This document shows positions 59,690 through 59,902 of a DNA stretch of 64,000 nt, one piece after another. A program made the position numbers and the translations under genes. The notes under the pieces are model-generated. The model was not told the origin of the DNA and ran no database searches. It saw nothing but the letters and a program-made list of their open reading frames with translations. The stretch is taken from the NCBI GenBank assembly GCA_030680745.1, contig JAUXUR010000079.1, forward strand, positions 5,304 through 69,303, read 5' to 3'. How positions within the stretch are numbered: position 1 is the stretch's first letter; each line of letters begins with the position of its first letter. The stretch is from Alphaproteobacteria bacterium (GTDB lineage: Bacteria > Pseudomonadota > Alphaproteobacteria > JAUXUR01).

Positions 59690-59728
59690 CAAAAGCCCTC
59701 CTCATGAAGGCTTTTTTTTACCTCTCCC
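59690..59728 (+). terminator. Rho-independent terminator candidate (aagcc-loop-ggctt followed by T8)
   Basis: aaagccctcctcatgaaggcttttttttacc, immediately downstream of the 59013..59585 gene. Confidence 0.45.
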
Positions 59729-59902
59729 CTTGTGGGAGAGGTCGCGACCAAAGGGAGCGGGTGAGGGGTTTGTACAATTTTGGAGAGATGCGTATTTGCT
59801 TGGCAATGCTTAGATTATGGCATGATAGTGTTGCTCTTTGTAAACGCTTTAGATACCCCTCACCCGTCGCTGCGCGCCGACCTCTCCCACAAGGGGAGAG
59901 GT
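59721..59902. repeat. GC-rich ~180-bp palindromic MITE-like element with ~45-bp inverted arms
   Basis: cctctccccttgtgggagaggtcgcg...gggagcgggtgaggggt is the reverse complement of acccctcacccgtcgctgcgcgccgacctctcccacaaggggagagg. Mirror ORFs on both strands end in RPLPQGER. Confidence 0.65.

Follow-up and report, generated by a model that had tools for sequence, protein, structure and literature searches.

The stretch of DNA considered here, called the window throughout, is 64,000 nt long, has a GC content of 34.3% and comes from an alphaproteobacterium (assembly GCA_030680745.1, contig JAUXUR010000079.1). Between a 190-aa open reading frame (ORF) and the convergent hppD-hmgA-FAH cluster it carries a palindrome, each arm of which has the three blocks of an intrastrand-triplex motif. 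The explanation favoured, with a probability of about 0.65, is that the element is a non-coding, inverted and convergent pair of long-loop intrastrand purine-motif triplex motifs, and a DNA-level site that is prone to structure formation and recombination. From its sequence it can be assigned securely, as a long-loop variant, to a known family, the triplex motifs of Escherichia coli successively called BoxC, potential intrastrand triplex (PIT) elements and TMECO.

Anatomy of the element

An inverted-repeat search of the window placed the palindrome at 59720-59902, where a sequence-only reading had seen one, and its terminal 21-mer, CCTCTCCCCTTGTGGGAGAGG, occurs twice in the 64 kb, once on each strand, against an expectation of 0. 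The perfect arms of about 45 bp described in that reading are shorter on alignment: only the terminal 25 nt (ACCTCTCCCCTTGTGGGAGAGGTCG) are perfect, with 29 nt at 97%; inward of the perfect part come 12-17 nt that diverge between the arms, indels included, and then CGGGTGAGGGG, part of a 17-nt repeat that is 88% complementary. A 60-nt alignment of the arms has 50 of its 63 columns identical. The reading was right that GC content is far above that of the surroundings, the arms (59720-59773 and 59843-59913) being among the few parts of the window in which 40-nt segments have at least 65% GC. The AT-richer centre folds as DNA no better than its shuffles (z = +0.47), has no similarity to any related element found, and has promoter-like sites at a frequency no higher than in shuffles.

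Each 23-nt end of the palindrome is itself a hairpin with a 9-bp stem in the predicted DNA fold, the ninth pair of the left one being A59720 with T59742. Read 5' to 3' on its own strand, an arm consists of CCTCTCCC, loop 1 (CTTGT), GGGAGAGG, a GC-rich mini-hairpin of 16-18 nt that forms loop 2, and GGGTGAGGGG, a design of polypyrimidine, polypurine and mirror-polypurine blocks. The third block has no Watson-Crick pairing in the DNA fold. Read antiparallel to the purine block it provides 8 of 8 canonical triplets in both arms (six C-G*G, one T-A*A and one T-A*T in each), which is the purine-motif or reverse-Hoogsteen set; on the left, 59760-59767 lies antiparallel to 59734-59741 and 59721-59728. 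The composite three-block pattern has 2 matches in the window with 0 expected. Its last part in the form GGWGWGGG has three sites when both strands are counted, and two of these are the third blocks, 16-18 nt 3' of the hairpins and in the right orientation.

The G-rich strand could instead be a G-quadruplex: short-loop relatives are G3N3 x4 motifs of the canonical kind (GGGAGAGGGTTAGGGTGAGGGG), and the left arm has four G3 tracts. As the right arm has only three such tracts this is extremely unlikely; the tracts would also compete with the 9-bp hairpin, the A and T positions covary as triplets, which a quadruplex does not require, and imino signals in nuclear magnetic resonance (NMR) spectra of the E. 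coli motif have been read as triplex and not as G-quadruplex (PMC4666352). The gap between the two 8-nt triplet cores is 89 nt (59768-59856).

Kinship with the E. coli triplex motifs

BoxC and PIT motifs have been known for some 30 years without an assigned function; BoxC was reportedly described by Bachellier et al. in the 1990s, and the PIT element of E. coli is said to date from Hoyne et al. in 2000. A natural short-loop module that shares the window's hairpin (taken from L012, L038, L085 and L109) matches 5,409 of 5,426 complete E. coli genomes, at a median of 19 places and with up to 97% identity, and in strain MG1655 the pair at 164547-164631 is convergent and laid out like the window's, its second loops being 3 nt long and its centre 17 nt. 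In that MG1655 pair a third block is followed by CATCAG (L127, 164581-164586), and so are the third blocks in both arms of the small alphaproteobacterial genome L094 (7140-7145 and 7229-7234); the sharing of this hexamer may be chance. BoxC was re-described as a PIT element and then as TMECO, with the consensus CCCTCNCCC-N3-6-GGGNGAGGG-N3-GGGNGAGGG, and its triplex formation in vitro was demonstrated by circular dichroism and NMR (PMC4666352). MG1655 has 23 TMECO copies, all of them intergenic, and E. coli K-12 has five convergent inverted pairs, each joining two different loop types (PMC4666352). Alphaproteobacteria are not mentioned in that paper.

Set against the consensus, both arms in the window read ACCTCTCCC for the C-rich stem CCCTCNCCC (8 of 9 positions, the ninth pair being A-T instead of C-G) and GGGAGAGGT for the first G-rich stem GGGNGAGGG (again 8 of 9), and have GGGTGAGGG(G) for the second. 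Loop 1, at 5 nt in both arms, is within the 3-6 nt of the consensus, and every stem position has its purine-motif triplet with the third strand antiparallel, 8 of 8 in each arm. As in E. coli the pair is intergenic, here between convergent ORFs, and joins two non-identical motifs, their second loops being different. Where the consensus has a second loop of 3 nt (of the TTA or CCG type), the window has its 16-18-nt mini-hairpin.

By the definition of a class II intrastrand triplex in the program ITxF (three stems of 6-15 nt, at most 1 mismatch, both loops 1-6 nt; PMC4666352) the window's stems qualify and loop 2 exceeds the limit. Since loops were limited to 0-10 nt by Hoyne and to at most 6 nt in ITxF (PMC4666352), long-loop forms were invisible to both published surveys, and the family is here widened to a form in which a hairpin is inserted as loop 2.

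Covariation of three strands

Every pyrimidine/purine hairpin (8-nt stems, 3-8-nt loops) in fetched loci of about 120 genomes was collected, and the next 60 nt were scored for a purine block in mirror or in direct register, an A being allowed as A or T. Among stems unlike the search seed, 38 were followed by a block in mirror register only, 11 by one that fits both registers and 3 by one in direct register only, so that 49 are mirror-compatible when shuffles of the same 60 nt give 1.4 per register (the counts are by locus, with kinship uncorrected, and the loci were selected through one hairpin sequence). One case, the hairpin CTTCTCCC/GGGAGAAG with the third block GGATGAGGGG, was found 11 times. 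Other combinations of purine block and third block are GGGAGGGG with GGGGAGGG, GGGGGAGG with GGTGGGGG or GGAGGGGG, GGGGGAGA with AGAGGGGG or TGAGGGGG, AAGGGGGA with AGGGGGTT, and AGGGGAAG with GATGGGGT. The arm with GGATGAGGGG stands opposite CCCCTCACCC in pairs from Bradyrhizobium, and therefore the mirror relation within the arm is kept at the cost of an A.C mismatch between the arms.

Covariation in mirror register is the signature expected of base triplets, unlike alternative Watson-Crick pairing or a simple direct repeat. Worked through by hand on the sequences, pairing of the pyrimidine strand with the third block breaks down for the T variant and shows no covariation. Triplets that change in concert from C-G*G to T-A*A or T-A*T indicate selection on a DNA fold of three strands, or on whatever reads it. 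That the constraint points to DNA follows from the statement that purine-motif triplexes do not form in RNA (PMC4666352).

The same statement bears on a role in RNA, with the element as 3' untranslated region (UTR) of the hppD-hmgA-FAH operon and its hairpin either blocking 3'-5' exonucleases or ending convergent transcription. The only terminator-like site on the minus strand, 59710-59697, lies beyond the element relative to FAH, so FAH transcripts probably cross it, and this, the placement between convergent genes and the very stable RNA folds (-105 and -117 kcal/mol, z -8.5 and -9.8) all speak for such a role. As the explanation of the element it is nonetheless improbable: within single arms nothing pairs in Watson-Crick fashion with the conserved third block, the mirror covariation fits triplets of the kind stated not to form in RNA, and PIT elements had neither terminator nor promoter activity in earlier E. 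coli tests (PMC4666352). Nor is there an Rfam family at the locus, either in a scan of the whole window at gathering thresholds or in a permissive scan of the locus, where the best scores were 20.7 bits for MIR4416 (threshold 70) and 15.9 for whalefall-1 (threshold 37). A part as 3'-UTR stabilizer or terminator may coexist with a function in DNA and would leave the third block unexplained.

Mirror open reading frames

The palindrome yields an ORF on each strand, of 66 and 65 aa, and, as the sequence-only reading had pointed out, both end in the identical RPLPQGER. Neither has a Pfam match, the 66-aa ORF has a single weak match among 5.8 billion proteins (E = 9e-4) that spans only the 36% encoded by the arms, and the middles of both are encoded by the centre, which is common to no related element. 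For these reasons the ORFs are artefacts of the palindrome, as that reading had proposed, and the element is non-coding; the same Pfam and protein-database results dispose of the alternative that they are real small proteins.

Relatives and spread

An exact scan for the 21-mer in 596 Gb, with one genome per species, found at least 120 stretches where, by our own arithmetic, fewer than 1 is expected by chance. The matches listed include Bradyrhizobium, Sphingomonas, Chloroflexota, Nitrospirota, Deinococcus, Elusimicrobiota, cyanobacteria, Legionellales, Cysteiniphilum and Paracaedibacteraceae, and nearly all of the listed copies carry the three-block module. Loop 2 is bimodal, 92 of the 218 modules in the fetched loci having 2-7 nt and 124 having 10 nt or more, and long second loops fold at a free energy (dG) of -2 or below in 85% of cases versus 57% of shuffles. 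The dominant arrangement in these loci is a convergent pair whose third blocks point towards each other, and single arms are common among the listed copies. The gap between third blocks has a median of 28 nt in 143 convergent pairs, the window's 89 nt being the fifth largest. The two second loops of a pair are identical in only 1 of the 143 and below 80% identity in 139, which parallels the 'type A plus type B' rule of E. coli and might reflect avoidance of a perfect long palindrome.

Small or AT-rich genomes (L094, L116 and L090) have pairs built like the window's, again around an AT-rich centre, and the left loop-2 region is 87% similar to the corresponding arm of L094. The right arm with its loop 2 has 96-98% identity over 48-53 nt to arms in a high-GC metagenome-assembled genome (MAG; L087) and in AT-rich contigs (L243, L244, L249 and L282); centres and flanks of these copies are unrelated and no target-site duplication (TSD) was found in them. 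A metagenome scan for the long-loop arm gave at least the matches listed, and in one GC-rich metagenomic organism a pair is dispersed in at least 13 copies, whose arms and outer flanks are conserved and whose centre of about 25 nt varies. In IMG/VR contigs the third block is present at 78 of 83 hairpin matches. A plasmid collection gave three arm-length matches only. The hairpin is carried by 74 viral or proviral contigs (L128-L201, IMG/VR), in which host flanks of prophages are possibly included; the 2015 E. coli paper reported no phage or plasmid association (PMC4666352). Alphaproteobacteria have the long-loop form in abundance, as do AT-rich and probably intracellular lineages and contigs of metagenomic and viral origin, and the expectation that the arms belong to a dispersed repeat family is borne out by the many copies in other genomes, with a single pair in the 64 kb at hand.

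In a Paracaedibacteraceae MAG a triplex-motif pair is directly followed by a tandem array (L116:2296-2450) whose units, about 47 nt long, each end in the terminal hairpin's 3' half, GGGAGAGGT. The centre of the pair in a Legionellales MAG is spanned by Ns (L090:5037-5109), and among Logan contigs of the window's own organism one (L001) ends inside the right hairpin, at about 59889, and another (L002) at about 59633, some 90 nt before the left hairpin. Short-read assemblies break at or near such elements, which also create spurious mirror ORFs, and these effects matter for annotation and assembly.

The 'MITE-like' label given to the element in the sequence-only reading would make it a transposable element of the miniature inverted-repeat type (MITE), a deletion derivative of an insertion sequence (IS) whose terminal inverted repeats (TIRs) are bound as duplex by a DDE transposase acting in trans. 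It is short, palindromic and intergenic with perfect 25-nt ends, and related pairs are multi-copy and dispersed in other genomes, many copies being held there where the window has one in 64 kb. The TIRs are thus present, but no TSD was found at any of four candidate boundaries of the window element or in related copies, so a classical TIR-plus-TSD MITE is not what the sequence displays. Because TSDs are lacking, because the ends are common to many phyla, unlike the lineage-specific ends of ISs, and because the blocks covary as triplets in mirror register, which is not expected of a protein-bound TIR, a classical MITE is very unlikely; single arms are common, and no transposase or integrase remnants occur near TMECO sites (PMC4666352). 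The comparison with ERIC drawn in the same reading fails, the whole element having no match at E <= 1 in the 5,426 E. coli genomes. Those genomes presumably carry ERIC, so similarity to its enterobacterial consensus of about 127 bp should have appeared among them.

A doublet of the REPIN kind, two inverted REP-type hairpins moved as single-stranded DNA by a RAYT or IS200-type HUH tyrosine transposase, would account for ends that are hairpins, for the dominance of inverted pairs, for the lack of a TSD and for a centre that varies while the arms are conserved. It is improbable in that the hairpin is identical across phyla, whereas REP sequences co-evolve with RAYT and are lineage-specific; we know of no RAYT link for the family to which the window element belongs. 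The foot of the hairpin also has no GTAG or CGTC tag, its flanks being TTTT/A...T/CG, and the sequences differ from those of the GTAG/CGTC REP superfamilies (PMC3733652).

Remodelling of the locus

A sister MAG (GCA_030696155.1, L124) has 97-100% nucleotide identity to the window through hppD and hmgA. FAH is a mosaic, with patches of 79-89% identity (window 60311-60460 and 60761-61060), against 92-100% for hppD and hmgA, that suggest recombination tracts adjoining the element. At the same place the sister has a palindrome of about 570 bp which keeps, on both sides and at 89-93% identity, the AT-rich outer arm together with the terminal hairpin's first 17 nt (ACCTCTCCCCTTGTGGG), window 59886-59941 having that identity to both of its arms. 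Its interior of about 460 nt (L124:7098-7558) is unrelated and consists in part of its own 61-nt inverted repeat (98%) and some five mini-hairpins similar to CCGCGGCTTGACCGCGG, which seem to be a further small repeat family. The third block was found nowhere in L124. Beyond the far outer arm the gene content of window and sister is entirely different, synteny being lost at the edge of the element.

The loci compared were those of FAH homologues at 94, 90 and 85% identity. Synteny 3' of FAH differs in all three of these genomes, so there is no clean pair of filled and empty sites; the two more distant ones (L125 and L126, FAH at 90% and 85%) have no such element, and their neighbouring genes differ again. 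In E. coli, sequence variability around TMECO motifs is significantly above that of control intergenic sites, and symmetric partial loss of both motifs that leaves a clean stem-loop is known as the 'palindromic effect' at paired sites (PMC4666352). The symmetric replacement of the interior in L124 and its synteny break fit this published link between motifs and instability, and one pair coinciding with both is the sort of evidence that a test of this proposed link outside E. coli would require.

The whole element is enclosed by an outer AT-rich inverted repeat (59581-59619 and 59914-59952, 39 nt at 77%), part of which, 59593-59619, is 96% identical to L124:7586-7612. A 40-mer of the outer arm is single copy in the window, so a lineage-specific repeat is not supported, and its junction pattern had no match in JGI metagenomes. 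It would seem that an older AT-rich inverted repeat, bordered by one run of A and one of T, houses the pair in its apex, and the locus has probably been remodelled repeatedly.

A proposed mechanism and what weighs on it

In the favoured explanation, the polypyrimidine and polypurine strands would form the 9-bp hairpin when replication, transcription or repair leaves the DNA single-stranded. With the GC mini-hairpin as linker, the G-rich third block could fold back antiparallel into the major groove of that hairpin to give G*G-C, A*A-T and T*A-T triplets, and the two arms together might extrude as a long hairpin or cruciform. Such structures could plausibly hinder replication or serve as substrates for recombination, which would fit the rearrangements seen here and in E. 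coli. The site would thereby act at the DNA level, prone to structure formation, recombination and deletion, and not as a gene or an RNA, and pairs may spread as small non-autonomous units without target duplication.

Several points weigh against this explanation. Apart from the manner in which the covariation loci were selected and counted, loop 2 of the window, 16-18 nt against 3 nt, is outside the published consensus, and there are 8 triplets against 9 in E. coli. DMS (dimethyl sulfate) footprinting gave no stable TMECO triplex in vivo, and earlier work cited in the same paper found no promoter, terminator or polymerase-blocking effect in vivo (PMC4666352). The comparison that reveals rearrangement is with one sister genome, and any long palindrome could be fragile without a triplex. 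With one copy in 64 kb and no copy in 21 kb from the two more distant relatives, activity in the lineage is unproven.

A wider proposal, speculative and on the whole unlikely, is that long-loop triplex-motif pairs form a class of small mobile DNA in their own right and pass from phylum to phylum, the triple helix in single-stranded DNA serving propagation or choice of target, and insertion occurring without target duplication into hairpin apices such as those of bidirectional terminators. Three-way covariation would then reflect selection on DNA tertiary structure and not on an RNA or a protein site, an arm at 98% identity in unrelated AT-rich hosts would fit recent horizontal spread, and the same elements would drive local rearrangement in the reduced genomes of intracellular bacteria.

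Surroundings of the element

The 190-aa ORF ends at 59585 and FAH at 60023, and both the terminator-like hairpin before the element and the hppD-hmgA-FAH cluster beyond it are where the sequence-only reading had put them (Table 1). Outside the lineage the closest homologues of FAH are in Legionella and other Gammaproteobacteria (about 67-72% identity), and horizontal transfer among bacteria associated with amoebae may have spread the homogentisate cluster. The host is alphaproteobacterial and carries a DUF2497 (PF10691) protein that is taken, from its N-terminal sequence, to be PopZ-like. An ORF of 1397 aa at 53589-57782 has only a weak NUDIX domain (residues 312-416) and a C-terminal half that, by eye, seems internally repeated; its product might serve in interaction with a host. 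Rfam families that reach the gathering threshold in the window are limited to RNase P RNA (class A, 298 bits) at 36436-36825 and one tRNA at 50174-50247.

Table 1. Positions of the element, its parts and its neighbours in the window.
Feature	Position	Strand	Remark
Distal left outer AT-rich arm	59581-59619		Overlaps stop codon of the 190-aa ORF
Insert of about 96 nt (59620-59715), then T-run to 59719	59620-59719		Separates left outer arm from HP1; carries the terminator-like hairpin
Terminator-like hairpin	59691-59715		Just upstream of the element
Mirror ORF, 66 aa	59704-59904	+	Ends RPLPQGER
Mirror ORF, 65 aa	59718-59915	-	Ends RPLPQGER
Left terminal hairpin HP1	59720-59742	+	9-bp stem in DNA fold
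HP1 pyrimidine strand CCTCTCCC	59721-59728	+	
HP1 loop 1 CTTGT	59729-59733	+	
HP1 purine strand GGGAGAGG	59734-59741	+	
Left loop 2, degenerate GC-rich mini-hairpin HP2 (CGCGACCAAAGGGAGCG)	59743-59759	+	Links purine strand to third block
Left third block GGGTGAGGGG	59759-59768	+	Unpaired in Watson-Crick fold
Centre, AT-richer	59769-59855		87 nt, long for the family
Right third block GGGTGAGGGG	59856-59865	-	Triplet partners 59864-59857
Right loop 2, mini-hairpin (CGGCGCGCAGCGACG)	59865-59879	-	DNA fold
Right terminal hairpin HP1'	59880-59902	-	Pyrimidine strand 59901-59894, loop 59893-59889, purine strand 59888-59881
Right outer AT-rich arm	59903-59952		Contiguous with HP1'
FAH, hmgA, hppD	60023-63275	-	

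Comparison with known systems

Correia/NEMIS MITEs and ERIC are, like the window element, small palindromic intergenic repeats with spurious ORFs and long RNA hairpins, the differences being that here there is neither a TSD nor sequence similarity and that single arms occur alone. Bru-RS1 and Bru-RS2 of Brucella (103 and 105 bp) and RIME of Rhizobium, also palindromic and intergenic, are alphaproteobacterial repeats about 100 nt long and resemble the element in these general traits. In Bradyrhizobium, a genus also rich in the window's family, convergent genes whose 3' UTRs overlap contain the repeats Br-REP1 and Br-REP2 there; their consensus sequences, CCGGAATCTCGAGATTCCGG and CGAGATTCCGGGTTCGGCTCTT..., are different (PMC5082802). 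REPINs and REP doublets share with the element two inverted hairpin units within a larger hairpin, an intergenic position, a variable centre and no target duplication, and differ in the GTAG or CGTC tag that the window element does not have, in its cross-phylum hairpin and in its extra mirror-repeat block.

The comparison with BoxC/PIT/TMECO goes furthest. Beside the loop-2 length and triplet number already weighed, the window differs in the distance between triplet cores (about 89 nt versus about 17 nt in E. coli, and a median of 28 nt in the 143 pairs) and in its host, a 34%-GC uncultured alphaproteobacterium and not an enterobacterium. Common to both are the three blocks, which agree in order and orientation, near-identical cores (CC(C)TCTCCC, GGGAGAGG(G) and GGGTGAGGG), a first loop within 3-6 nt, triplets of the kinds G*G-C, A*A-T and T*A-T, and an intergenic setting in which convergent pairs of differing members occupy loci that are hypervariable between close relatives.

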